Source: a virus | Taxonomy: Duplodnaviria > Heunggongvirae > Uroviricota > Caudoviricetes | Virus record (IMG/VR): IMGVR_UViG_3300029996_000255 | DNA: 64,000 nucleotides | Reading direction: 5' to 3' (one strand) | Part shown: positions 5,533-47,493 of the stretch, one piece after another | Layout: each line of letters opens with the position of its first letter | Numbering within the stretch: position 1 is the first letter of the stretch | Position numbers and translations under genes: made by a program | Notes under the pieces: model-generated | Databases searched by the model: none | What the model was told of the DNA's origin: nothing | The model's input: only the letters and a program-made list of their open reading frames with translations

Positions 5533-7167
5533 ATGTTTACAGATAACAAAGATTTCTACCCAACGCCACAAAATCTTATAGATAAAATGCTTGATGGATT
5601 GGATTGGAAAATGATACATACAGTTCTTGAACCATCAGCAGGTAAGGGAAATATTGTTGAAGCATTAAAGAAAAAGGAAGATTTTAATAACAGATGGTAC
5701 ACAACAATCAAGTTAAATATTGACTGTATAGAGAATGACGTAAACTTACGAGCAGTATTAAAGGAAAAGAATTTCAGAGTTGTACATGATGATTTTTTGA
5801 CATACGACACAATGAAGGAATATGACTTAATTATTATGAATCCTCCGTTCTCAAATGGATGTAAACATCTGTTAAAAGCATTGGAAATGCAACAGAGAAA
5901 TGGCGGTGCTGTTATTTGTCTACTTAACGCAGAGACATTAAAAAATGAATGCAACAATGAAAGAATAATGCTGAATAGAATGTTAGAAGAATACAATGCA
6001 GACATTCAGTATATTCAGGATGCTTTTATGGATGCAGAGAGAAAAACAAACGTTGAAATTGCATTGATAAAAGTAAAACTTCCAGATGTACAGAGAGATT
6101 CTTTTATCTTTGATAGCTTAGAGAAAGCCAAGGAACAGAGAGAATATACATATAACACAGAAAACACGCAGCTTGCAGAAAATGATTTTTTAAAGGCAAT
6201 AGTCGAACAGTATAAAATGGAAGTTGAAGCAGGCGTGAAACTCATTAAAGAGTATTATGCAATGTCACCACATATCCTATATCAGTTTGGAAAAGACAAG
6301 CAGACAGGACAGACAATACAGACTGGCGGTTGCGTGTTAAATCTTAGTATTGGAAAAGATAGTGCATCAGTAAACGGATATATAAGAGAAATTCGTGGTA
6401 AATATTGGTCAGCATTATTTGATAATCCGAAGTTCATTGGTCAGCTCACAAATAATTTGCAGAGAGAATACTATAACAAGGTCGAAGAATTAAAAGACTA
6501 TGAATTTTCGCTGCACAATATATACGAACTGAAAATTGATATGAGCAAGAAAATCATAAAGGGAATTGAAGATACAATTATTTCACTCTTTGAAGAACTG
6601 AGTAATAAATATTCCTATTATGATGAATGCAGTAAGAACATTCATTATTTTAATGGATGGAAAACAAATAAAGCATGGATTATAAATAAAAAAGTAATCA
6701 TTCCATTAAGAGGATGGAGAGATTTGGAATATTCATGGGGTGGATTTAAACCAACCGATCACGATGTAGTAAGCAAATTAAGAGATATTGAAAAGTGCTT
6801 CAATTATCTTGATGGCGGCTTGACAGAAGCAGTTGATTTATTCCAGTCACTAGAATTTGCTGAAGAATATGGAGAGTCAAAAGATATTGTATTGAAGTAT
6901 TTCAATGTAACTTTTTATAAGAAGGGAACTTGCCACATTACATTTACAAATGAAGAGTTATTGAAAAAGTTCAATATATTTGGAGCACAACATAAAGGAT
7001 GGCTGCCACCTTCATATGGAAAGAAAAAATATTCTGATATGACATTAGAAGAAAAAGCAGTTGTAAATGACTTTGAAGGTGAAGTTGAATACAACAAGGT
7101 AATGTGCAACACAAGTTATTATCTGGCAGACACAAACAGTATGTTGATGTTGGATATGGCAGAATAG
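5533..7167 (+). CDS. N6-adenine DNA methyltransferase. The N-terminal domain has the AdoMet-binding motif LEPSAGKGN and catalytic motif IV, IIMNPPFS; a ~340-aa C-terminal extension is a putative target-recognition region
   Basis: motifs I and IV read from the translation; motif order I then IV (gamma-like). Confidence 0.7.
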   Translation: MFTDNKDFYPTPQNLIDKMLDGLDWKMIHTVLEPSAGKGNIVEALKKKEDFNNRWYTTIKLNIDCIENDVNLRAVLKEKNFRVVHDDFLTYDTMKEYDLIIMNPPFSNGCKHLLKALEMQQRNGGAVICLLNAETLKNECNNERIMLNRMLEEYNADIQYIQDAFMDAERKTNVEIALIKVKLPDVQRDSFIFDSLEKAKEQREYTYNTENTQLAENDFLKAIVEQYKMEVEAGVKLIKEYYAMSPHILYQFGKDKQTGQTIQTGGCVLNLSIGKDSASVNGYIREIRGKYWSALFDNPKFIGQLTNNLQREYYNKVEELKDYEFSLHNIYELKIDMSKKIIKGIEDTIISLFEELSNKYSYYDECSKNIHYFNGWKTNKAWIINKKVIIPLRGWRDLEYSWGGFKPTDHDVVSKLRDIEKCFNYLDGGLTEAVDLFQSLEFAEEYGESKDIVLKYFNVTFYKKGTCHITFTNEELLKKFNIFGAQHKGWLPPSYGKKKYSDMTLEEKAVVNDFEGEVEYNKVMCNTSYYLADTNSMLMLDMAE

Positions 7168-22888: not shown

Positions 22889-23146
22889 TTGAGTAGATAT
22901 AAGAATGGAAACCCAAAACATGCAAGTCGATTCATATGTTTAAAATGTATGAATGAAAATATGTTAGCCAGTGGAATTCAGAGACAGAGACAAAGAGAAC
23001 GAAAACATATTAAGGATTTGTATTGTTTGAAGTGTGGAGAGGTAACGAAGTGCATCGAAGTAAGATTTTGTGATTCTTATGAAGAAATTTTTGAGGTTGC
23101 AAAGATAAAAAGAGAGAATTATTACATAGACAATTATGAAAGGTAG
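22889..23146 (+). CDS. hypothetical zinc-ribbon protein (CLKCMN...CLKCGE)
   Basis: ORF track; AATGAGGTGAATAATG RBS. Confidence 0.45.
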   Translation: MSRYKNGNPKHASRFICLKCMNENMLASGIQRQRQRERKHIKDLYCLKCGEVTKCIEVRFCDSYEEIFEVAKIKRENYYIDNYER

Positions 23147-24152
23147 GTTGATGATAATGTGTTATAAAATAGAAGTGCAGAATAAAAATGCGGAGAAGCT
23201 TAATAAAAAATTAGATGAGTTAAATGCACCACAATTTTTAAGAGATTACTTAAATGAGTTGGAAAGCAAAAACGGAGCGCTAAATTATTTAGTGGCAATT
23301 AAAGATTTTTTACAGTGGTTGATTGAAAGTAATATTATTAATAAGAAATCAATTTCTGAAATAGAAGTTTCTGATTTTAATGACCTAAGACCACAAAATA
23401 TTAGTTCATATCTTAGATATAAGGAAACAAATGGAATGTCACCAACCACAACAGAAACAAGGAAAAATATCATTAAAAGTTTTATACAGGATATTTATTC
23501 ATACAGAGAGTGTTTGTTAAGAGAAGTTTATAGTAATATAGAAGATTTTTACAAAATGATTAAATATAAGGGAATCCCATCTGGAAACAACTTAATAAAA
23601 AAACTTCCAACAGAAAAGCAGCTTAATGACATGGAAGAGAAGATAATGTGGAAAAAGGATATTGCAGTAAAAAATAGGAATATTGCTATCTTTAGGGTAT
23701 TAAGGGGCACTGGTATAAGAGAGTCAGAGCTTGCTGGCTTAGATTTATCTGATTTACATTTGAAGGAAGAAATGCCATACATTACTATTCTTGGCAAAGG
23801 TGTGTACAGAGAAATGCAAAATAGAACCGTATATCTTAGCGGATCAGCCTTAAAAGCATTGAAAGAGTGGTTAGAGTATAGGTTGACATTGGATAATATT
23901 ATTGATACAGAAGCAGTTTTTATTAATAAAAACGGAACACGTACAACAGAGAAAAATATTAAGCAGATATTTGAAAATTACGGAAATGGTATTACTGCAC
24001 ATATGATGAGACATTATTATGCTACTGTAATGAATCAAAATGGAAATCTTGCATTCGTACAACAGCAGCTTGGGCATAGTAGTGTAAAAACAACTGTCAA
24101 AAATTATGCAAATGGAGCAGTGGGAATGAAAGATGTACTAAATAATATGTGA
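23136..24152 (+). CDS. int: tyrosine site-specific recombinase / phage integrase (alternative starts at 23151 and 23157)
   Basis: C-terminal catalytic motifs R..ELAGL, HMMRHYYAT, LGHSSVKTTVKNY read from the translation. Confidence 0.85.
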   Translation: MKGRLMIMCYKIEVQNKNAEKLNKKLDELNAPQFLRDYLNELESKNGALNYLVAIKDFLQWLIESNIINKKSISEIEVSDFNDLRPQNISSYLRYKETNGMSPTTTETRKNIIKSFIQDIYSYRECLLREVYSNIEDFYKMIKYKGIPSGNNLIKKLPTEKQLNDMEEKIMWKKDIAVKNRNIAIFRVLRGTGIRESELAGLDLSDLHLKEEMPYITILGKGVYREMQNRTVYLSGSALKALKEWLEYRLTLDNIIDTEAVFINKNGTRTTEKNIKQIFENYGNGITAHMMRHYYATVMNQNGNLAFVQQQLGHSSVKTTVKNYANGAVGMKDVLNNM

Positions 24153-29769: not shown

Positions 29770-31158
29770 ATGGGAAACAATAGAATGACAATTTGTAGAA
29801 AAATTAAATTATTTCCAGTAGGAGATAAGGATGAAATCAATAGAGTATATGACTTTATTAGAAATGGTCAGTATGCTCAATATCAGGCTTGTAACCTGCT
29901 TATGGGACAGCTTATGAGTGAATATTACAAATATAATCGTGATATTAAGAATGAAGAATTTAAGGCAAGACAGAAAGAAATAATGACAAACTCTAATATC
30001 ATATTAAAAGATATTGATTTTGCAACTGGTGTAGACACTCCATCAGCCGTTACTCAGAAAGTCAAGCAGGATTTCAGCACAGCTTTAAAGAATGGATTGG
30101 CTAAAGGTGAACGAACTGTAACAAATTATAAGAGAACTAATCCACTTATTACAAGAGGCAGAAACTTAACTTTTTATCATGAGTATGAAACATATCATGA
30201 TTTTTTAGACAAGATTAATGATTCTGATTTGGCGGTATATGTCAAGTGGGTTAATAAAATTGTATTTAAGGTTGTGTTTGGCAATCCGCATAGGTCATTA
30301 GAGTTAAGATCTGTTATTCAGAATATATTAGAAGAGAATTATAAAGTGCAAGGAAGTAGCATTGAAATTGATGGTAAGTCAATCATTTTAAATCTCTCAA
30401 TATCTATTCCAAAACAACTTAGAGAGCTGGATGAAAATATAGTAGTAGGTGTTGATTTAGGCATTGCAGTTCCTGCTATGTGTGCTTTAAACAATAATCT
30501 TTACGAGAGATTGGCAATTGGAAATGCAGATGATTTTCTAAGAATAAGAACTAAAATGCAAGCTCAGAGAAAAAGATTACAGAAGTCATTACGAAATACT
30601 TCTGGTGGTCATGGTAGAGCAAAGAAACTGAAAGCATTAGAAAGATTGCAGAAAGCAGAAGTACATTTTGTTGAAACATATTGTCATATGATAAGTAAAA
30701 GAGTCGTTGATTTTGCTTTAAAACATAATGCTAAATACATAAATATTGAGAATTTAACAGGATATGATACAAGTGATTTTATCCTGAGAAATTGGAGTTA
30801 TTATAAACTTCAAGATTATATTACATATAAAGCAGCTAAATACGGAATAGAAGTAAGAAAAATCAATCCTTGTTATACATCACAGATTTGTAGTGTATGT
30901 GGTAATTGGGAGTTTGGTCAGAGAAAGTCACAGTCAGTATTTGAATGTGCAAATGAGAATTGTGATAGTCATAAAAAATATGAAAAAACTGGTTTTAATG
31001 CAGACTTCAATGCTGCCAGAAACATTGCAATGTCAACTCTTTGGATGGGAAGTGGACAAGTTACTGAAAAGAGTAAACAGGAAGCAAGAGAATATTATGA
31101 TATCTCTGAAAAATATGAACAAAGTAAGAATGGTTCAGAGAATAATAAAGTAGCTTAA
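29770..31158 (+). CDS. TnpB/Cas12f-like RuvC nuclease (462 aa): RuvC-I VVGVDLGIAVPAM, Arg-rich helix, RuvC-II YINIENLTG, CxxC...CxxC zinc ribbon (CYTSQICSVCG...FECANENCDSH), RuvC-III NADFNAARNIA; catalytic D/E/D all present
   Basis: domain order and motifs match OrfB_IS605 plus the Zn-ribbon architecture; AAAAGGAGA RBS. Confidence 0.8.
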   Translation: MGNNRMTICRKIKLFPVGDKDEINRVYDFIRNGQYAQYQACNLLMGQLMSEYYKYNRDIKNEEFKARQKEIMTNSNIILKDIDFATGVDTPSAVTQKVKQDFSTALKNGLAKGERTVTNYKRTNPLITRGRNLTFYHEYETYHDFLDKINDSDLAVYVKWVNKIVFKVVFGNPHRSLELRSVIQNILEENYKVQGSSIEIDGKSIILNLSISIPKQLRELDENIVVGVDLGIAVPAMCALNNNLYERLAIGNADDFLRIRTKMQAQRKRLQKSLRNTSGGHGRAKKLKALERLQKAEVHFVETYCHMISKRVVDFALKHNAKYINIENLTGYDTSDFILRNWSYYKLQDYITYKAAKYGIEVRKINPCYTSQICSVCGNWEFGQRKSQSVFECANENCDSHKKYEKTGFNADFNAARNIAMSTLWMGSGQVTEKSKQEAREYYDISEKYEQSKNGSENNKVA

Positions 31159-32493: not shown

Positions 32494-32566
32494 TGGGATG
32501 TGGTGAAGTGGTCAACACATCAGATTTTGATTCTGACATTCGTGGGTTCGAATCCCACCATCCTAG
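32494..32566 (+). tRNA. tRNA-Gln (anticodon TTG)
   Basis: manual cloverleaf: acceptor TGGGATG/CATCCTA (U1:A72, typical of bacterial tRNA-Gln), anticodon stem TCAGA/TCTGA with loop TTTTGAT, T-arm GTGGG-TTCGAAT-CCCAC. Confidence 0.7.
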
Positions 32567-32570
32567 CTGT

Positions 32571-32643
32571 GTGCTATTAGATCAATAGGTAGAGCACTTG
32601 ACTTTTAATCAAGATGTTACGAGTTCAAGCCTCGTATGGCACA
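32571..32643 (+). tRNA. tRNA-Lys (anticodon TTT)
   Basis: acceptor GTGCTAT/ATGGCAC, D-loop with GG, anticodon stem CTTGA/TCAAG with loop CTTTTAA, T-arm ACGAG-TTCAAGC-CTCGT. Confidence 0.7.
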
Positions 32644-38822: not shown

Positions 38823-39377
38823 ATGTCAAATTTATATGTATATTTAATTCGTTCTCGAAATAAAGACAATAAGGATATTCCAAATTTCAAAGAACGAGCC
38901 GAAACAATTCTTGAATGTAGAGAGAATGAAGACAAGGTAATTGAAGATTTTAAGAGTTTTGCAGCTGAAGGAGTTCCTGGTGAACAGACAAGGTTGTATA
39001 GGTCGGTTAATTCAAGAAACGAAGAGAAAATCAGAGAAGAGTTTGTTATTCGTCTGTTAAGAGATAAACCAAGTATGACCCGGTTAAATCGCACATTAGC
39101 ATCTGTTGCACAACAGGTACAGAATCGTGATGAGAGTAAGTGGTTGTTTGATTTTGATGTGGATGATGATAGTTTAGTTTTAGAATTTATCTATGATATT
39201 ACAAATTATGGAATCGTGTTTAATCAAATCAAATTGTATAAGACACCGAATGGGTTTGCCGTTATAGTTCCGCATGGATTTGATACAAGAGAGCTGATGG
39301 AAAAGTGGAAAGATTATGACATTACATTGAAAAAAGATGAGTTGTTGTTTTTGAATATGATAACGAATGGAGAATAG
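38823..39377 (+). CDS. hypothetical protein (184 aa)
   Basis: TAAGGAGAATAAATACA ATG. Confidence 0.5.
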   Translation: MSNLYVYLIRSRNKDNKDIPNFKERAETILECRENEDKVIEDFKSFAAEGVPGEQTRLYRSVNSRNEEKIREEFVIRLLRDKPSMTRLNRTLASVAQQVQNRDESKWLFDFDVDDDSLVLEFIYDITNYGIVFNQIKLYKTPNGFAVIVPHGFDTRELMEKWKDYDITLKKDELLFLNMITNGE

Positions 39378-39378
39378 T

Positions 39379-40119
39379 ATGTACGAAAAATTGAGAGAAT
39401 ATATAGAAGAATCAAATGATATTGTATTCTTTGGTGGAGCAGGTGTATCTACTGAAAGTGGTATTCCAGATTTTCGTTCCAAGGATGGATTATATAATCA
39501 GCATGATGTTCAGTTTGATAAATACGAGCCAGAGTATCTTTTGAGTAGAGAATGTTTATATAACAATCCAAAAGTATTTTATGAATTCTATCGTCAGAAG
39601 ATGGATACAAGAAACATTGAGCCAAACATTACTCATAAGGTACTTGCTAAAATGGAAAAGATGGGTAAGCTGAAGGCTATTGTTACACAGAATATTGATG
39701 GACTTCATCAGAAGGCTGGCAGTAAAAATGTATTTGAGATTCATGGAACTACTCAGAAAAATTATTGTAGCAAATGCAAAATGGAATATCATCCTGATTT
39801 CTTATTCGATACTAAAGAAGCTATCCCAAAGTGTAAATGTGGTGGACTAATCAGACCTGATGTGACTTTATATGGAGAAAAATTGCCTGATGAAGCTGTA
39901 AATGGTGCTGTTGAAGCAATTAGTAAAGCCGATATGTTGATTATTGGTGGTACTTCATTACAGGTTTATCCAGCAGCAAATTACATCTCATATTTTAGTG
40001 GTAGACATTTGATTGTTATCAATAGAGAAAAAATCCATGTGCTATTGAACGGAGATACTGATTTGATGATTGTTGATTCGTTGGGTAATGTATTTACTGA
40101 GATTGAGAAATGGATGTGA
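39379..40119 (+). CDS. Sir2-family NAD+-dependent protein deacylase / ADP-ribosyltransferase-like protein (CobB-like, 246 aa)
   Basis: GAGVSTESGIPDFRS NAD-binding motif; Zn-binding CSKCK...CKCGG; GTSLQVYPAA motif. Confidence 0.85.
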   Translation: MYEKLREYIEESNDIVFFGGAGVSTESGIPDFRSKDGLYNQHDVQFDKYEPEYLLSRECLYNNPKVFYEFYRQKMDTRNIEPNITHKVLAKMEKMGKLKAIVTQNIDGLHQKAGSKNVFEIHGTTQKNYCSKCKMEYHPDFLFDTKEAIPKCKCGGLIRPDVTLYGEKLPDEAVNGAVEAISKADMLIIGGTSLQVYPAANYISYFSGRHLIVINREKIHVLLNGDTDLMIVDSLGNVFTEIEKWM

Positions 40120-40127
40120 GGTGAACT

Positions 40128-40289
40128 ATGGCGGTATATGTGACAGGTGACATACATGGAACTCCTATAAGATTAAGTAAGGATAGTTTTTATGAACAGA
40201 AAGATTTTTCTGGTAATAAAGATGAAAATATCTTAATTATCCTTGGTGATTTTGGTCTTGTATGGAGCAGAGATGAAGAAAGCAAATAA
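40128..40289 (+). pseudogene. N-terminal fragment (53 aa) of a metallophosphoesterase (GDIHG...ILGDFG), followed by ~290 bp of non-coding DNA; likely a gene remnant
   Basis: only motifs I and II are present; downstream frames do not continue the domain. Confidence 0.4.
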
Positions 40290-40576
40290 GAAAAATATAA
40301 ATCTTATTCATGATCAGTTAATACATATTCTTCAAATTGTTATAACATGGATTGTGTTTATAGCAATTCGATAGAGAATAATTATATATAGAAATTTCTA
40401 TCTTGGCGATTCAGCCAAATTTTCCAAATAAAAGTAACAAGAAATATTTTTTCTTATGGTTTTTGCAGACGTGCAAATTCCATAGGATTTTACAACAAAA
40501 TAATATTAAGAAGAAAGGAATTAAGCAGTAACTCCTAGGTAATTATGGTTACGTAACCTCTGTAAAATAATGTATT

Positions 40577-41065
40577 TTGACAGAGAATAATAAAAAAAAT
40601 AATTCTCAAGGGCTACGAGTGTTAAGTTTATGTGGTGGTGTAGAAACAGGATTATATGCGTTACAACAACTTGGAATACCTATAAGAGAATATCATACAT
40701 ATGAAATTTTACCAGAAGCCATAGCAGTTTCTCAGTATCATTTTCCGCTTGTGGTACATCATGGTGATTTATATGAAGCGGATTTTGAACAGTTCAAAGG
40801 ATTTGATCTTCTATTGGCAGGTACGTGCTGTCAGTCTCTTTCAAGAGTACGAATTGAAAATAAAGAAGTCAACAATGGTCTCGATGGTAAGTCAGGAATT
40901 TTCTTTAAAGCGATTGAGTGTCTTAGGGTAATTCAACCCAAATGTTTCATGTTTGAAAATGTAATACCAAGCAGTGATGAAGATCTAAAGACAATGACAG
41001 ATGAAATTATACATAATTATTACAATGATGATGAATGGGAGATGGTGGAAGATATTACTTACTAA
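40577..41065 (+). CDS. C5-cytosine DNA methyltransferase, N-terminal half (motif I LSLCGGVETG, catalytic-Cys motif IV GTCCQSLS, motif VI FMFENV). The last ~19 codons are insertion-derived
   Basis: motifs read from the translation. Confidence 0.7.
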   Translation: MTENNKKNNSQGLRVLSLCGGVETGLYALQQLGIPIREYHTYEILPEAIAVSQYHFPLVVHHGDLYEADFEQFKGFDLLLAGTCCQSLSRVRIENKEVNNGLDGKSGIFFKAIECLRVIQPKCFMFENVIPSSDEDLKTMTDEIIHNYYNDDEWEMVEDITY

Positions 41066-41699
41066 AGAAGTTAAAGTAAAAGCAAGAAGTAGAAATACAA
41101 AATTATTCGAGAGTTTGGGGTATAAGATTCCAAGAGACAAAGATGATCGAGGAAGAACTCGTGTAGTCCCTAATGCTACCATCATGGTTAAAATAGAGGA
41201 TCTACCAGAAGGGAGCAATGCAATAGTTAAATATCAATGTGATGATTGCGGTTCAATACATACAGTACATTATTCAGATTTAGCATATAGAAAAAATAGT
41301 CGTTTTAAGAAAAATGGTGAGACGTTATGTATTTATTGTTCTAATCATAGAAATTCTGGACAAAATAATCCTCAATATAAACATGGAGAACAAAGGTATT
41401 CTGAATATAGAAGTAACGCACGAAATAGGGGAATAGAGTTTAAACTGTCAGTTGAAGAGTTTAAAAATATAGTAAAACAACCTTGTCATTATTGTGGAGG
41501 ATTTTCATCAGAGTGGAATAAAAATAGCAGAGGTAATGGAATAGATAGAAAAAATAGTGACATAGGTTATATTTATGAAAATTGTGTTCCGTGTTGTAGT
41601 AAATGTAATTTTGTAAAAAACAATACCCCATATGATAAATTTTTGATATATATACGGAGGTTATATGAGACAACAAAGAATTATAAAATTTCGAAATAG
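41001..41699 (+). CDS. HNH homing endonuclease inserted inside the C5-methyltransferase gene (CHYCGG...NGIDRKNSDIGYIYENCVPCCSKCNFVK). Start uncertain; alternative ATGs at 41025-41031
   Basis: HNH motif; sits in a different frame from both methyltransferase halves. Confidence 0.7.
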   Translation: MKLYIIITMMMNGRWWKILLTKEVKVKARSRNTKLFESLGYKIPRDKDDRGRTRVVPNATIMVKIEDLPEGSNAIVKYQCDDCGSIHTVHYSDLAYRKNSRFKKNGETLCIYCSNHRNSGQNNPQYKHGEQRYSEYRSNARNRGIEFKLSVEEFKNIVKQPCHYCGGFSSEWNKNSRGNGIDRKNSDIGYIYENCVPCCSKCNFVKNNTPYDKFLIYIRRLYETTKNYKISK

Positions 41700-42210
41700 A
41701 AAGACAGGTGAAATTCAAACTTTTTCAGTAAGATTGATAGACTCTTCTTTATTTGGTTCTCAGAATCGTGAGAGATATTATTGGACAAACATACCGCTAG
41801 GTGAATTGCCTGAAGAATCTCCATTAGTTTTGAAAGATATTATGGAAAATAATGTAGGTGAGAAGTATTTCTACAAGAAGGACTTTGAGATTTTGGATAT
41901 GAATAAGCGTGTATGTGCTGAACTAAAGGTCAACACAACAGAAATGTGTAAAAGAATTTATAATCCAGATTTCAAAATGTCAACATTAACATGCGTGTCA
42001 GGTGGATATCACGAAAAGAAAGTATTAGATAGTGGTAGACCACGAAAACTTACAGAAGTTGAATATGAAAGATTACAGGGATTGCCTGATAATTTTACAA
42101 AAATTCAGCTTAACAATCGTTGGTTATCATACTCAAAAAGATGTAGTTTGATGGGCAATGGATGGAATGAACCTACTATTGAATGGATTTTGAGTGGGTT
42201 AAGAGAATAA
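41665..42210 (+). CDS. C5-cytosine DNA methyltransferase, C-terminal half (motif VIII QNRERYYW, target-recognition domain, motif IX RKLTEVEYERLQGLPDNF, motif X GNGW), with its own RBS (ACGGAGG) and ATG
   Basis: motifs read from the translation. Confidence 0.7.
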   Translation: MRQQRIIKFRNRKTGEIQTFSVRLIDSSLFGSQNRERYYWTNIPLGELPEESPLVLKDIMENNVGEKYFYKKDFEILDMNKRVCAELKVNTTEMCKRIYNPDFKMSTLTCVSGGYHEKKVLDSGRPRKLTEVEYERLQGLPDNFTKIQLNNRWLSYSKRCSLMGNGWNEPTIEWILSGLRE

Positions 42211-42267
42211 AAGAAAGGAGTAAGAGGTTTGGTATACCGAAAACGCAGCGTTTACTCCTGATACATA

Positions 42268-42771
42268 ATGATAATAAATAGAGTCTGGCAGATGCCAAAT
42301 AGCAACACATTTTCAATTAAGCCAATTAAGGAATTAATTGAGAAATATGCAACTGGTAAGATTGTTGATCCGTTTGCTAATAGCAATAAATTGGCAACAG
42401 TGACAAATGACTTAGATACACAATATGATACTGATTACCATATGGATGCATTGGATTTCTTAAAGATGTTCGATGATAACTCAGTAGATACAGTGTTATA
42501 TGATCCACCATACTCGCCACGACAGGTAAGCGAATGTTACAAAAATCTTGGACAGACAGTAAATATGCAGACAACACAAGCTTCATATTGGTCTAAACAG
42601 AAGGAGCAGATAGGAAGAATTGTAAAGAAAGATGGCATTGTAATTACTTGTAGCTGGAATAGTGGTGGTATTGGTAAGAAGTATGGCTTTGAAATTCAGG
42701 AAATTTTACTTGTTCCGCATGGCGGCTGGCACAATGATACAATTGTTGTGGTTGAGAAGAAGATCGAGTAG
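42268..42771 (+). CDS. small N6-adenine/N4-cytosine DNA methyltransferase-like protein (VDPFANSN ... LYDPPYSP)
   Basis: DPPY catalytic motif and FxGxG-like motif. Confidence 0.5.
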   Translation: MIINRVWQMPNSNTFSIKPIKELIEKYATGKIVDPFANSNKLATVTNDLDTQYDTDYHMDALDFLKMFDDNSVDTVLYDPPYSPRQVSECYKNLGQTVNMQTTQASYWSKQKEQIGRIVKKDGIVITCSWNSGGIGKKYGFEIQEILLVPHGGWHNDTIVVVEKKIE

Positions 42772-42867
42772 AGAATAACATAATATGAAGTTCGCAGGAA
42801 AGCGGAATTTCTTCTAAGTTTTCAGAGAATAAATACATATAAAAAACAAGAAAAGAGGATTAAATGT

Positions 42868-43173
42868 ATGAGTAAAGCTATTTTAGTGTTAGATATGCCT
42901 GGAACTTGTTGTGATTGTAATTTTTGTAGAGAAATACAAGAAGGTATCGAAGCATGTTGTGAATTAATGGATGAGCCAAATGATAATACTCTTTGTAGAA
43001 TGGTTGATAGTAAAAATGAATATTGTCAAGAAAAACCAAATTGGTGTCCATTAAAAGAATTGCCAGAAGAGACTCACAATGATGAATATATGGATGAATA
43101 TTGTGATGGCTACGATGATGGTTGGAACTCATTAAGAAAGAAAATTTTAGGTGAAGATGAAGAGAATAAATAG
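42868..43173 (+). CDS. Cys-rich acidic protein
   Basis: ORF track; AAAGAGGATTAAATGT ATG. Confidence 0.45.
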   Translation: MSKAILVLDMPGTCCDCNFCREIQEGIEACCELMDEPNDNTLCRMVDSKNEYCQEKPNWCPLKELPEETHNDEYMDEYCDGYDDGWNSLRKKILGEDEENK

Positions 43174-44675: not shown

Positions 44676-45188
44676 ATGAGTAAAACACTAATTGTAATTG
44701 ATATGCAGAATGACTTTATTGATGGCTCACTTGGCACAAATGAAGCACAGAGTATTGTACTTAATGTGGCAAAGAAAATCAAGGAGTACAGAGAAAATGG
44801 TGATAGTGTAATTTTTACAAGAGATACACACCCAAATAATTATTTAGAAACATATGAAGGAAAGCATCTCCCAGTTGTCCATTGTGTAAAAAATACAATC
44901 GGATGGCAGATTTCAGATAAGTTAGATTTTGATATTGAGAATGACGTAGTTATTGATAAGCCGACTTTCGGATGGACACATTGGGATGATTTTGATTTTA
45001 CAGAAGTAGAAGTTTGTGGTCTTTGTACAGACATTTGTGTAGTGTCAAATGCACTTATGATTAGAGCAAATTATCCTAATATTGATATTACAGTGGATGC
45101 AAGTTGCTGTGCAGGTGTTACACCTGAGACGCATAAGGCTGCATTAGAGACAATGAAGATGTGTCAGATTAACGTGATTGGAGAGTAG
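44676..45188 (+). CDS. pncA: isochorismatase-family cysteine hydrolase, nicotinamidase (PncA)-like
   Basis: LIVIDMQNDFIDGSLG N-terminal motif, catalytic Cys in VCGLCTDICV, Zn-binding H...H. Confidence 0.7.
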   Translation: MSKTLIVIDMQNDFIDGSLGTNEAQSIVLNVAKKIKEYRENGDSVIFTRDTHPNNYLETYEGKHLPVVHCVKNTIGWQISDKLDFDIENDVVIDKPTFGWTHWDDFDFTEVEVCGLCTDICVVSNALMIRANYPNIDITVDASCCAGVTPETHKAALETMKMCQINVIGE

Positions 45189-45191
45189 AAT

Positions 45192-46028
45192 ATGATTAAA
45201 ATTAATGGTGAAATTGTAGCAATCAACAAGTTCCCAGATGGAACACCAAGAGTAAATATTGATACAAACAACATCGAGGAAGACACTTATGATGGCTCTC
45301 CTTGCATTTGGATTGAATGGATTTATGAGAGTAACGATGAGATGTTTTATCTGATGTTAGTAAGGAAACATCTTGAAAGATTTTTTACTAATGTGGATTA
45401 TTATTTATATCTTCCATATATTCCTAATGCACGAATGGATAGAGTAAAAAATGATGATGAAGTATTCACATTGAAGTATTTTTGCGATTTTATCAATTGG
45501 TTAGGATTTTCATCAGTTTATGTTTTAGATGCTCATAGCGATGTTTCTACTGCATTACTCAATAATTGTGTAAAAGAAAATCCAAAAGAGTATGTTGATA
45601 AAGCTATTTCAAAGATTGGCATGAGAAATCTTGTACTTTATTTCCCAGACGCAGGTGCAGCTAAGAGATATTCAGATTTATTCCCTGAGTTACCATATTG
45701 TTATGGTGAAAAGAAAAGAGATTGGAAGACTGGCAAAATCCTTGGATTAGACATTATAACAAATGGTATTGATTTGAAGGACAAAGCTGTGTTAATGATT
45801 GATGATATTATCGCATATGGCGGTTCACTTTATTATAGCGCAGAAGAATTAAAGAAGATTGGTGTAAATGAGATTTATGCTTATGCAACACATACAGAAA
45901 ATTCAATTCTTGATAAAGAAAAGGGTACGTTGATTAAGTCTTTGGAGAATAATACAGTGAGAGCATTATTCACAACAAACAGTATTTTTACTGGCAAGCA
46001 TGAAAAGATTACAGTTATGGAGGTTTAA
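45192..46028 (+). CDS. ribose-phosphate pyrophosphokinase (PRPP synthetase)-family protein; candidate ADP-ribose pyrophosphokinase (Adps) of an NARP1-type NAD+ reconstitution pathway
   Basis: PRPP/phosphoribosyl-binding loop VLMIDDIIAYGGSL; adjacent to a NAMPT homolog. Confidence 0.65.
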   Translation: MIKINGEIVAINKFPDGTPRVNIDTNNIEEDTYDGSPCIWIEWIYESNDEMFYLMLVRKHLERFFTNVDYYLYLPYIPNARMDRVKNDDEVFTLKYFCDFINWLGFSSVYVLDAHSDVSTALLNNCVKENPKEYVDKAISKIGMRNLVLYFPDAGAAKRYSDLFPELPYCYGEKKRDWKTGKILGLDIITNGIDLKDKAVLMIDDIIAYGGSLYYSAEELKKIGVNEIYAYATHTENSILDKEKGTLIKSLENNTVRALFTTNSIFTGKHEKITVMEV

Positions 46029-46032
46029 AATT

Positions 46033-47493
46033 ATGGATAACACAATGGCTTTATTACTTAGTGATACTTATAAGCAGTGTCATGATCGTATGTACCCAAA
46101 GGGATTAACTAAGTTAGTCTCATATTGGGTGCCTCGTAAATCAATGTTGGAAAATCAGAATCATATGGTTTTCTTCGGATTACAGGCTTTTATTAAGGAA
46201 TATCTAATTGGATATTTCCAGAAGAATTTCTTTGAATTATCAGAGAATGAGATGTTATCTCTTTATACAGATTCAATGGATGTGCAGATTGGCAGAGATA
46301 ATTACGACTTAGAGAAGATTGTAGAACTTCACAGACTTGGTTATCTGCCACTTGAAATTAGAGCTTTACCAGAGGGAACACTTGTACCAATGGGAGTTCC
46401 TTGTATTGAAATTACCAATACAGATGACAAATTTGCATGGCTTGTTCAGTGGATTGAGTGTATCCTTCAGGTTGAATTATGGAAGCCTTGCTGTCACGCA
46501 ACTATTGGTCATATGTATCGTGAGATTGCAGATTATTGGTATAACAAAACAACAGACGGTTTACCTGGCAATATGGCTTGTGCCGATTTTGGTATGAGAG
46601 GTATGTCTTGTATGGACGAAGCTACAAGATGTTCTGCTTCATGGTTATTATCTTTCAATAAGACTTCAACTATTCCTGCCATTACATATATTGATAAATA
46701 TTACAATGCTGATTGTAAGAATAATGGTATTGGAATTGGTGCAGTGTCAACAGAACATTCCGTAATGGGAGCAAATTACTCAATTGATGGTGATGAGATT
46801 ACATTTGTTAAGAGATTGCTTACAGAATTATATCCAAATACTTCATTCAGTATGGTTTCAGATACTTATGATTATTGGAATATGGTAAACAATATTCTTC
46901 CACAGTGCAAGGAAGAAATTATGAATCATAATGGCAAGTTACTTGTTCGTCCTGATAGTGGTGATATTGTAGAGATTTCAGTTAAGACAGTAGAAAGATT
47001 ATGGGATATCTTTGGTGGTTCTATCAATGGCAAGGGTTATAAGGTGTTAGATCCACATATTGGTATTATCTATGGTGACGGATGTACTCTTTCTAATGTA
47101 GAAACTATTTGGAAAGAATTAGAAAAGCGTGGATTTGCAGCTAATAACATTGCTTATGGTGTAGGTGCATTTTGTTTTACAGCTATTGTCGAGAATGGAA
47201 AGATGATTGTTGTTACAAGAGATACTTTTGGAATTGCAATGAAGGCTACTTATGGAGTTATTGATGGTAAGAAGCTTATGATCTTCAAAGATCCGAAGAC
47301 TGATACAAGCCATTTAAAGAAATCTCATAAGGGGTGTTGCAAAGTATATGAAGAAGATGGAGAACTGAAGTGTCAGGATCAGTTACTCGATATGAATGAA
47401 GATAGTTTGCTTACAACTGTATTCAAGAATGGAGAATTAGTAAGAGAGGATACATTTGAGGACATTAGGAACAGAATGTATGGAGGAAAGTAA
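46033..47493 (+). CDS. nadV: nicotinamide phosphoribosyltransferase (NAMPT/NadV) family protein; candidate Namat
   Basis: N-terminal LLLSDTYKQCHDRMYPKG...VSYWVPR pattern and ~490-aa size typical of NAMPT. Confidence 0.7.
   Translation: MDNTMALLLSDTYKQCHDRMYPKGLTKLVSYWVPRKSMLENQNHMVFFGLQAFIKEYLIGYFQKNFFELSENEMLSLYTDSMDVQIGRDNYDLEKIVELHRLGYLPLEIRALPEGTLVPMGVPCIEITNTDDKFAWLVQWIECILQVELWKPCCHATIGHMYREIADYWYNKTTDGLPGNMACADFGMRGMSCMDEATRCSASWLLSFNKTSTIPAITYIDKYYNADCKNNGIGIGAVSTEHSVMGANYSIDGDEITFVKRLLTELYPNTSFSMVSDTYDYWNMVNNILPQCKEEIMNHNGKLLVRPDSGDIVEISVKTVERLWDIFGGSINGKGYKVLDPHIGIIYGDGCTLSNVETIWKELEKRGFAANNIAYGVGAFCFTAIVENGKMIVVTRDTFGIAMKATYGVIDGKKLMIFKDPKTDTSHLKKSHKGCCKVYEEDGELKCQDQLLDMNEDSLLTTVFKNGELVREDTFEDIRNRMYGGK

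Follow-up and report, generated by a model that had tools for sequence, protein, structure and literature searches.

A DNMT3-like C5 cytosine DNA methyltransferase gene, located at positions 40,577 to 42,210 of the Caudoviricetes record IMGVR_UViG_3300029996_000255 (IMG/VR), is broken into two separately encoded parts by the gene of a PacI-like nuclease. The whole stretch of 64,000 nucleotides that was analysed is called the window below. With good confidence, this arrangement is best explained by a free-standing homing-endonuclease cassette that replaced approximately 47 bp of a surface loop of the methyltransferase (motif VI to motifs VII/VIII), and that would have spread by cutting alleles lacking it, with the two parts of the enzyme re-associating non-covalently. 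The cassette also encodes a short acidic tail at the end of the N-terminal half of the enzyme (N-half) and a short basic head at the start of its C-terminal half (C-half), both of which recur together with the same nuclease family in highly diverged methyltransferases.

A normally continuous methyltransferase encoded in two halves

Both parts of the split gene match the C5-methyltransferase profile PF00145 in Pfam searches, the N-half at profile positions 2-127 (E 9e-14) and the C-half at positions 176-309 (E 7e-6). All of the motifs tested are present in the canonical order across the two halves, namely I (LCGGVETG), IV (TCCQ) and VI (ENV) in the first open reading frame (ORF), and VIII (QNRER), IX (RKLTEVEYERLQGLPD) and X (GNGW) in the other, as had been read in an earlier note made from the letters of this DNA alone. 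Motif IV (window 40835-40846) is TCCQ instead of the usual PCQ; orthologs have SCCQ or TNCQ, and a non-PCQ form is found in all close orthologs. Among solved structures, the DNMT3A/3B catalytic domains come closest (E 1e-19), and the whole ortholog group is nearer to these eukaryotic enzymes than to any solved bacterial one.

When positions 41009-41715 are deleted in silico, the halves fuse in frame (TMTDEI/QTFSV), as the earlier note had pointed out. A protein database search with this fusion returned 1600 homologs. Of the best 120 (P0001-P0120), most are single proteins 307-313 aa long that are 74-89% identical to the fusion, and for most of them the coverage is 99-100%. The comparison with uninterrupted orthologs that had been proposed as a check thus gave more than 100 continuous proteins matching the fusion end to end. 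The fusion is 1 aa longer than the closest of them, and the N-half is collinear with their residues 1 to ~143. Where the aligned orthologs read ...DLKTMTECIGVEPILIDSGIFSAQNRER..., the window has ...DLKTMTDEI followed by the tail and a stop codon, and then the head and QTFSVRLIDSSLFGSQNRER. The break aligns with ...ISRFL/ECNPVMID of DNMT3B, between motif VI and the conserved ..ID.. segment 5' of motif VIII. Moreover, the identical split locus occurs in 36 blocks of sample assemblies, on contigs of up to 185 kb, and the identical C-half protein is found there in the split arrangement every time. Judged from these alignments, the window locus is a split version of a normally continuous methyltransferase gene. 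Activity of the split enzyme, with formation of 5-methylcytosine, is a prediction.

Extent and probable recent spread of the cassette

The extent of the foreign sequence was defined by uninterrupted alleles, two of which (L010 and L011) come from related phages whose flanks are common to the window. DNA homology to the uninterrupted alleles L008, L010 and L011 stops exactly at 41001 and returns at 41759-41770, and the foreign block therefore comprises ~757 bp (41002-41758) in place of ~47 bp of native sequence. A 707-bp insertion (41009-41715) had been proposed in the earlier note, and this estimate has to be replaced by the larger block. The site is polymorphic for presence and absence, being empty in L010 and L011 and occupied in the window, L001-L007 and L012-L015, and the carriers have lost the 47 bp of native sequence around it.

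The same split arrangement is present in four IMG/VR contigs (L012-L015) that are 94-96% identical to the window and show no indels. Their differences from the window are very unevenly distributed: 31-33 in the N-half (40577-40987, 411 bp; ~7.5%) and ~45-59 in the C-half (41749-42210, 462 bp; ~9.7% or more, in the three full-length contigs), as opposed to 5-9 in the cassette (40988-41748, 761 bp), with 5 in three of the four contigs. At the flank rate (~8.8%), ~67 differences would be expected in the cassette (Poisson P ~1e-22 for the 5 seen), whose divergence is roughly 10-fold below that of the flanks. At synonymous sites, divergence (pS) reaches 0.27-0.34 in the halves but only 0.035-0.05 in the nuclease gene, and the edges of the low-divergence tract are the edges of the block set by the empty-site comparison. 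Elsewhere, the same carrier genomes are 89-94% identical to the window, and three of the diverged carriers share one metagenome; IMG 3300045988 is an example of a metagenome with several carriers. Because the cassette is far less diverged than its flanks between split-bearing relatives, the data point to recent horizontal spread (homing) into relatives that had already diverged.

Copies with a decayed nuclease have also been found, and the methyltransferase halves outlast it. In L223 (1501-1962), the nuclease gene of the window carries a change from TGT to TGA at Cys154 (window 41486), which truncates the protein just before its core, and both halves are intact; since the cluster has n=7 member sequences, the nonsense codon is probably no read error. 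In L024 (1158-2379; P0188), the nuclease lacks ~120 residues at its N-terminus, and what is left of it, the core, is joined to the N-half in frame; the tail motif KEDWECIDD and an intact C-half with the head MKFRNIKTGEI are retained. A nuclease fold, site polymorphism and an element less diverged than its flanks, together with the lack of an intron or intein, are among the features of a free-standing homing endonuclease gene, and these were found here; cleavage of the endonuclease-less allele and over-inheritance in crosses would be further ones.

Several searches were directed at empty or repaired sites. A pattern for an empty-site allele with the flanks of the window cassette (ACAGRTGAAATTCAAACTTTTTCAGT) matched only the four occupied alleles in IMG/VR. 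For an in-frame scar, with the tail joined to the head, a degenerate DNA pattern gave 0 matches in IMG/VR, and the scar junction used as a short query against the protein database returned only halves and native orthologs. Among the scar candidates, P0043 (378 aa) was rejected as a C-terminal fusion, and Vibrio 1.225.O, Vibrio 1.079.O and Pseudomonas Epa40, in which the head was matched from residue 1-5, proved to be ordinary uninterrupted genes with weak similarity.

Recurrence of the cassette with an acidic tail and a basic head

Homologs of the nuclease with 42-70% identity occupy the same loop in highly diverged C5-methyltransferases. Splits at this site were observed in L021/L022, L187, L023, L024, L025-L027, L029 and L111-L116, a recurrence counted in loci, which may reflect independent insertions or vertical descent with divergence. 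Some of the enzymes split in this way have the canonical GSPC motif IV. In L023 (3632-5980), the C-half is a protein of 782 aa that consists of a normal C-half and a second complete C5-methyltransferase with its own motifs I-X.

Nearly all N-halves end in an acidic tail of the form ..[DN]x[DE]WEx[VI][DE], with DDEWEMVED, NEWEVVED, PDEWEVIEE, NDWERVD, DDWELISD and SDWVAVE as examples, and the start of the C-half, (M/I)KF[KR]NKKTGEIxE[FW], is conserved in 11 distinct loci. An exhaustive C-half search revealed at least 10 separate 50%-identity clusters beginning exactly with MKFKNKKTGEI. Tails are 13-24 aa long and heads ~14-23 aa (17-23 aa in the window), and over 11 pairs the net charge is -1 to -7 for tails and +1 to +5 for heads. 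Uninterrupted enzymes align to the C-half only from about residue 20 onward, and most deposited phage methyltransferases match a construct with the L025 head only from residue 17. Opposite-charge extensions on both fragments, absent from uninterrupted orthologs, are thus found here as in the split NrdA of Aeh1. The codons of the head vary synonymously (TTT/TTC, AAA/AGA/AGG/CGA, ACA/ACT/ACC and GGT/GGA/GGG), and in several loci both the tail and the head motifs lie outside the overlap with the nuclease ORF; for these two reasons, the codon pattern indicates that selection acts on the tail and head peptides themselves. The earlier note had treated the N-half tail and the C-half leader as incidental read-through, in place of which we find conserved peptides that travel with the nuclease gene.

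The arrangement is rare in IMG/VR, with only 3 contigs that contain the head pattern MKF[KR]NKKTGEI exactly. A six-residue extension (MRQQRI/MKQQRI) is restricted to the subfamily of the window, L021 and L187, in which the usual Met of MKF is Ile. A NUMOD4-like origin of tail and head, considered because they resemble the NUMOD4 motif (EWKxI...VRNKKTGKIL), was dropped, as four concatenated peptides gave no Pfam NUMOD4 match at E <= 10.

A more far-reaching proposal, which is attractive but tentative and not one that we would yet favour, is that the nuclease family constitutes a self-contained gene-splitting cassette with a protein-level antidote. The acidic beta-strand tail and the basic beta-hairpin head would then form a portable heterodimerisation tag, owing to which the cassette can settle in one and the same loop of widely differing C5-methyltransferases and still not destroy these enzymes.

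Proposed mechanism and points against it

In the mechanism considered here, the cassette would end the N-half with a short coding segment that yields the acidic tail and a stop codon, and would give the C-half a ribosome-binding site, a start codon and the basic, probably beta-hairpin, head. During mixed infection, the nuclease would cut or nick the uninterrupted allele of related phages in or near the 47 bp, and the cassette-bearing allele would be immune because it lacks this replaced sequence. Recombinational repair would copy the cassette in, with very short co-conversion tracts. The two methyltransferase chains, translated separately, would re-associate non-covalently, probably with the tail and head, which have opposite charges, as an aid in finding or holding each other. 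A role of tail and head in assembly is suggested by analogy with NrdA-a/NrdA-b of Aeh1, whose tails came with the mobE insertion, have opposite charges and are essential for activity (PMC3045599).

Several points weigh against this homing-cassette reading. An engineered M.SssI bisected at 189/191 is inactive without overlap (PMC3404938), so that complementation at such break positions is not automatic, and since that split needed overlapping sequence, a helper element at this position would be plausible. The predicted nuclease is without the canonical catalytic His. The dN/dS of the halves (0.06-0.22), which was counted in favour of the reading as selection on the halves, may be largely older than the invasion, because the cassette is younger than its flanks. 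In L029, the tail is almost missing and the head is short, so long extensions would be usual but not obligatory. In addition, the AF2 model of the C-half alone, in which the head forms a beta-hairpin (strands 5-10 and 17-26), has low confidence (pLDDT 49).

The nuclease

No Pfam HNH match was obtained for the window nuclease, and only 2 of the 39 family members reach HNH (PF01844), at E 0.29. On the other hand, its PHROG matches are endonuclease VII, HNH endonuclease and homing endonuclease (E ~1e-13), and the best solved relative in a profile search is PacI (3LDY; E 5e-5). When an AF2 model of the nuclease (pLDDT 88.8) was used in Foldseek, PacI again came first (E 3e-5, probability 1.00), with HNH nickases and the HNH domains of Cas9 next in rank. 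The alignment of the 39 members contains two invariant Cys4 sets (eight Cys, CxxC...CxxC) and the invariant core C-x-Y-C ... G-I/V-D-R ... G-Y ... N-C-V-P-C-C-x-x-C-N-x-x-K, with C154, Y156, C157, G172, D174, R175, Y182, N186, C190, C191, C194, N195 and K198 as invariant columns. The canonical HNH signature, that is, a His general base in a D-H motif, then Asn, then His/Asn on a helix, was not found; G-I/V-D-R, invariant in 39/39 members, places an Arg where the general-base His would be. Because of this Arg and the lack of a Pfam HNH match, the protein is filed in the PacI-like group of the HNH/His-Me superfamily and not as a canonical HNH nuclease, and the label of HNH endonuclease that was first given to it holds for the superfamily fold but not for the canonical class.

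PacI is the type member of His-Me finger group 20, in which the His is missing and a Tyr of the omega-loop acts instead (PMC5714182). The invariant GY of the family (Y182) aligns with the 'EGY' of PacI, and Y182 may therefore be the catalytic Tyr. Nuclease activity is predicted because PacI works with a substituting Tyr (PMC5714182) and because the gene bears the mobility signature described above. In T4-like Klebsiella phages, 'homing endonuclease' ORFs match the N-terminal part of the protein (residues 9-133 in tblastn, 19-117 in PHROGs). Relatives of the nuclease are encoded in 414 metagenome stretches. In tblastn searches of deposited phages, only relatives below 40% identity were found, none of them inside a methyltransferase, and bacterial genomes gave distant relatives only. 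The closest paralog of the nuclease (69% identity), in L109 (2492-4124) and also in L110, lies directly upstream of an intact C5-methyltransferase of 319 aa, not inside a gene; conserved N-terminal residues precede its first possible start codon, which indicates a decaying gene or a non-canonical start.

Gene layout and expression

The three ORFs (Table 1) all lie on the + strand and overlap, each in another frame, as had first been described. At its two ends, the nuclease ORF runs into the coding sequence of the halves (N-half stop on one side, C-half start on the other), which leaves at most ~30 nt non-coding.

Table 1. Positions of the split methyltransferase gene, the inserted cassette and their parts in the window
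Feature	Position	Strand	Details
N-terminal half of the DNMT3-like C5 cytosine DNA methyltransferase	40577..41065	+	motifs I, IV, VI; 162 aa; TTG start; stop 41063-41065
Left repeat copy	40996..41008	+	GACAGATGAAATT, encodes TDEI; 12/13; lineage-specific
Nuclease ORF, open from ATG 41001	41001..41699	+	232 aa if begun there
Mobile block	41002..41758	+	tail-coding segment, nuclease gene, ribosome-binding site, head-coding segment, ~45 bp replaced methyltransferase sequence
Cassette-encoded acidic tail of the N-half	41009..41062	+	IHNYYNDDEWEMVEDITY; 18 aa, net charge -6; absent from uninterrupted orthologs
Homing-endonuclease gene	41025..41699	+	PacI-like His-Me-finger (HNH-superfamily) nuclease, 224 aa
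First Cys4 zinc site	41238..41339	+	C72, C75, C102, C105 (224-aa numbering); invariant in the 39-sequence alignment
ββα-metal nuclease core	41484..41618	+	CHYCGG...GNGIDRKNSDIGY...NCVPCCSKCNFVK; second Cys4, Arg for His, invariant GY; aligns to the PacI core
Shine-Dalgarno GGAGG of the C-half	41656..41660	+	inside the nuclease ORF; 4 nt 5' of ATG 41665; read from the sequence
C-terminal half of the methyltransferase	41665..42210	+	motifs VIII, IX, X and target-recognition region; 181 aa
Cassette-encoded basic head of the C-half	41665..41733	+	MRQQRIIKFRNRKTGEIQTFSVR; net charge of first 20 aa +5
Right repeat copy	41703..41715	+	GACAGGTGAAATT, encodes the conserved TGEI of the head; ~43 bp inside the mobile block

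A nuclease of 232 aa beginning at 41001 had been proposed, and the reading frame is indeed open from there, but the gene callers on identical contigs choose 41025 or 41031 (224 or 222 aa) and the N-termini of family homologs align at these two starts, one of which is probably the true one. The nuclease gene has no recognisable Shine-Dalgarno sequence and its start sits within the N-half ORF, which suggests that its expression is low and coupled; low, coupled expression has been described for the mob and seg genes of T4 (PMC2988022). The C-half has a strong Shine-Dalgarno sequence of its own, and the ribosome-binding site and ATG that had been assigned to it were confirmed. In a promoter and terminator scan of 40100-42900, the counts were not above those of shuffles. 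The three genes appear to be co-transcribed, as no + strand terminator-like site lies between the ORFs.

Alternative explanations

It is also conceivable, although unlikely, that the split gene is dead, the insertion having inactivated the methyltransferase so that its halves are decaying pseudogene fragments, with the tail and head conserved only since the cassette is young. The cassette is indeed much younger than the flanks, so that, in the window lineage, the purifying selection seen on the halves may date from before the split. Engineered bisections outside the region after motif VIII complement poorly, and loss of one methyltransferase would perhaps be tolerated because the phage has several further DNA methyltransferase genes. 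However, both halves are intact in all of the more than 12 diverged lineages examined, including L024 and L223 with their decayed nucleases. Furthermore, the head is conserved in amino acids, with synonymous changes, across nuclease subfamilies that are 42-70% identical, which is not the pattern of young DNA, and the at least 10 separate C-half clusters that begin with exactly this head speak in the same direction.

There is only a slight chance that nuclease and methyltransferase form a restriction-modification-like or addiction pair, in which the nuclease would cut DNA without the methylation of the split enzyme and the nesting of the genes would guarantee their co-inheritance. The closest solved relative of the nuclease is a restriction enzyme, and the paralog upstream of an intact methyltransferase in L109/L110 resembles a restriction-modification gene pair. 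Against this, PacI itself is without a partner methyltransferase, the N-terminal domain of the nuclease matches 'homing endonuclease' families of T4-like phages, and the fixed-site polymorphism, the low divergence of the cassette and its decayed copies make up the classic life cycle of a homing endonuclease gene.

A slimmer chance still is left for a transposon-like element with a target-site duplication, the ends of which would be marked by a 7-13-bp repeat that permits precise excision. An 8-bp direct repeat flanking the insertion had been reported in the earlier note. TGAAATT is present at both of the positions given there (41002-41008 and 41709-41715), but the exact repeat is 7 bp, extending to 12/13, and it does not flank the insertion, the right copy being located ~43 bp inside the block defined by the empty sites. 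The extended repeat brackets most of the insert and the deletion between its copies is in frame. Ungapped matches at least as good, between the 120 nt that end the N-half and the 100 nt that begin the C-half, arose in 35/500 shuffles (7%), so the repeat is within chance expectation. Identity between N-half and head at equivalent codons is 13 of 15 in the window, 12 in L021 and 10 in L023, and only 5-8 in seven other members, at a background of 7.6 +/- 1.8. Related two-ORF arrangements without the repeat had been named in advance as an observation that would speak against the first interpretation, and with regard to the repeat this is what other members of the nuclease family show at the equivalent positions. 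The repeat is a lineage-specific similarity of uncertain origin and not a hallmark of insertion. A precise-excision empty site would carry one copy of GACAGRTGAAATT and then CAAACTTTT; no such allele (TMTDEIQTFSV) was found among 5.8 billion protein clusters or in IMG/VR, and no transposase is present. A different 12/13 repeat was observed in L021 (2949-2961 and 3620-3632), its copies being ATGACACAACAAA, which encodes MTQQ in the N-half, and ATGAAACAACAAA, which encodes MKQQ where the C-half begins.

That the insert is a self-splicing group I or II intron with an endonuclease ORF, the splicing of which would restore a continuous methyltransferase mRNA, is hardly credible. HNH endonucleases of phages are often intron-encoded, and an in-frame fusion can be drawn via the 7-bp repeat. 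The strongest argument to the contrary is that the stretches to be spliced out encode conserved peptides, one of which starts with a conserved Met. In addition, the nuclease ORF overlaps the N-half stop and the C-half start, which leaves no room for a ribozyme core. In the intron covariance search that had been suggested, Rfam at the gathering threshold found only two tRNAs in the whole window, and in 40500-42300 no intron model was matched even at E <= 10, where only noise appeared. The fold of 781 nt (40990-41770) is no better than that of shuffles (z = +0.18), and when all splice registers allowed by the repeat were enumerated, none combined a U at the end of the 5' exon with a G at the end of the intron, in agreement with the earlier remark that group I boundary rules are not cleanly satisfied. 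The preference of the earlier note for a free-standing homing endonuclease gene over an intron is thus supported by two separately translated ORFs without any splicing signature.

Protein trans-splicing, with tail and head as N-intein and C-intein pieces, respectively, of a 'fractured gene', would be just as hard to credit. Fractured genes with a free-standing endonuclease between split-intein halves are known from phage metagenomes (PMC2677866), and opposite charges on the two fragments are typical of split inteins. However, the first residue of the tail is I, L, F, A or G (Ile in the 18-aa tail of the window) and never Cys, Ser or Thr, and the end of the head is without a terminal His-Asn followed by Cys/Ser/Thr, as also holds for the 17-23-aa head of the window. 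Tails and heads are also too short, all natural split-intein pairs being, to our knowledge, far longer than 13-24 aa and ~14-23 aa, respectively. The insert as a whole is no intein because it is out of frame with both halves. Finally, translational bypass between the repeat copies in the style of T4 gene 60, where the bypassed gap is 50 nt, was rejected, as the gap here is 707 nt and contains a translated gene, and the repeat is not conserved.

Neighbouring genes

Directly upstream of the split gene, the window encodes a Sir2-family protein (39367-40119), followed by an ORF of 53 aa (40128-40289; MAVYVTGDIHG...) that is the N-terminal stump of a metallophosphoesterase. The metallophosphoesterase is intact (257 aa) in the related contig L014 (2556-3733), and the window lineage and L001-L007 are without ~1 kb that comprises the rest of this gene and the following ORF of 129 aa. 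Immediately 3' of the split gene, a DNA methyltransferase of 167 aa is encoded (42268-42771; phrog_11619, E 8e-54), and an NAD-salvage cluster (isochorismatase/nicotinamidase, phosphoribosyltransferase, NAMPT and NAD synthase) lies further downstream (44676-47493). Some relatives (L002 and L004-L007) have a PARG-like gene in addition at this locus.

Elsewhere in the window, a DNA methyltransferase gene with DUF4942 and a small methyltransferase domain is located at 5533-7167. An ORF of 462 aa (29770-31158) has a Cas12f1-like TNB domain (E 1.7e-15) and OrfB_IS605, and represents a TnpB-type IS200/605 element in a large phage-like genome. A tyrosine integrase (23136-24152; PF00589, E 1e-27) and two adjacent tRNA genes (32494-32643) were also identified, on an apparent phage contig of at least 185 kb.

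Implications and relation to known systems

An endonuclease gene that lands in coding sequence normally persists only under cover of an intron or intein; a third route is represented by the NrdA of Aeh1, whose fragments are re-assembled by tails acquired with the element. Given that tail and head recur in diverged hosts, from metagenomes of gut, freshwater and other origin, the tails would belong to the mobile element itself. If the portable-tag proposal is true, the peptides would be a naturally occurring pair of split-protein tags that can be transferred, and would offer, besides introns and inteins, another way of neutralising an insertion into coding sequence. The locus also provides a naturally split C5-methyltransferase with a break point unlike those of M.AquI and M.EcoHK31I, and adds phage homing endonucleases to the PacI-like branch of His-Me nucleases, a branch with few members. 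Annotation pipelines and gene callers will label such loci as two methyltransferase fragments and a hypothetical protein.

Free-standing homing endonucleases that create a gene in pieces are an already known kind of element, represented by Aeh1, by T4 gene 39 / mobA / gene 60 and by the fractured genes. The Aeh1 nrdA-a / mobE / nrdA-b locus, reportedly described as 'genes in pieces' by Friedrich et al. in 2007, is similar in that a free-standing HNH-superfamily endonuclease gene splits an enzyme gene, both parts of which are translated as ORFs of their own, the endonuclease ORF extends into the downstream half, neither RNA nor protein splicing is involved, and both halves have opposite-charge extensions that are absent from uninterrupted orthologs. 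It differs in its host gene, a ribonucleotide reductase there and a C5-methyltransferase here, as well as in the nuclease, which is here PacI-like and without the catalytic His. The polarity is also reversed, since here the tail of the N-fragment is acidic and the head of the C-fragment basic. Moreover, Aeh1 is a single case, whereas here the same motifs recur with one nuclease family, their function being predicted. In the expectation of the authors of the Aeh1 study, tails of this kind would be idiosyncratic and difficult to detect from sequence similarity (Crona et al. 2011, PMC3045599).

In T4, an HNH mob gene likewise splits a topoisomerase-subunit gene that is contiguous in relatives, and the products have tail-like extensions of opposite charge (PMC2988022). 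In contrast, the present locus has no translational bypass element, concerns another enzyme and has tails conserved across many insertions. The fractured genes (Dassa et al. 2009, PMC2677866) differ in that no intein is involved here, the extensions being 13-24 aa without intein blocks or splice-junction residues, and in that re-assembly would be non-covalent.

With regard to the nuclease, PacI (3LDY/3M7K) shares the ββα-metal core with a Cys4 zinc site on either side, G(I/V)DR where the His-bearing motif would be, the conserved GY in a loop, at the position of the acting Tyr of PacI, and the CN..K helix. It is a cellular restriction enzyme, whereas the window protein of 224 aa has an extra N-terminal domain of ~120 aa common to homing endonucleases of T4-like phages, is encoded within another gene and has the behaviour of a mobile element.

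M.AquI and M.EcoHK31I, which naturally have two subunits, and the engineered split M.SssI and M.HhaI are C5-methyltransferases that are active as two non-covalently complementing polypeptides (PMC3404938). In these known cases, the break lies after motif VIII in the variable region, or motif IX alone is separated, whereas it lies here between motifs VI and VIII, and the known cases involve neither a mobile element nor conserved appended peptides.

The 4.3-kb region had no megablast match among deposited phages, and no deposited phage with this arrangement was found. In the part of the literature that was covered, no title or abstract describes it, and a prior description is possible. Within these collections and this literature, a C5-methyltransferase host broken between motifs VI and VIII and a PacI-like nuclease without the catalytic His as the splitting nuclease appear to be new, and so, above all, does the recurrence of the same tail and head peptides with one nuclease family in many diverged hosts.

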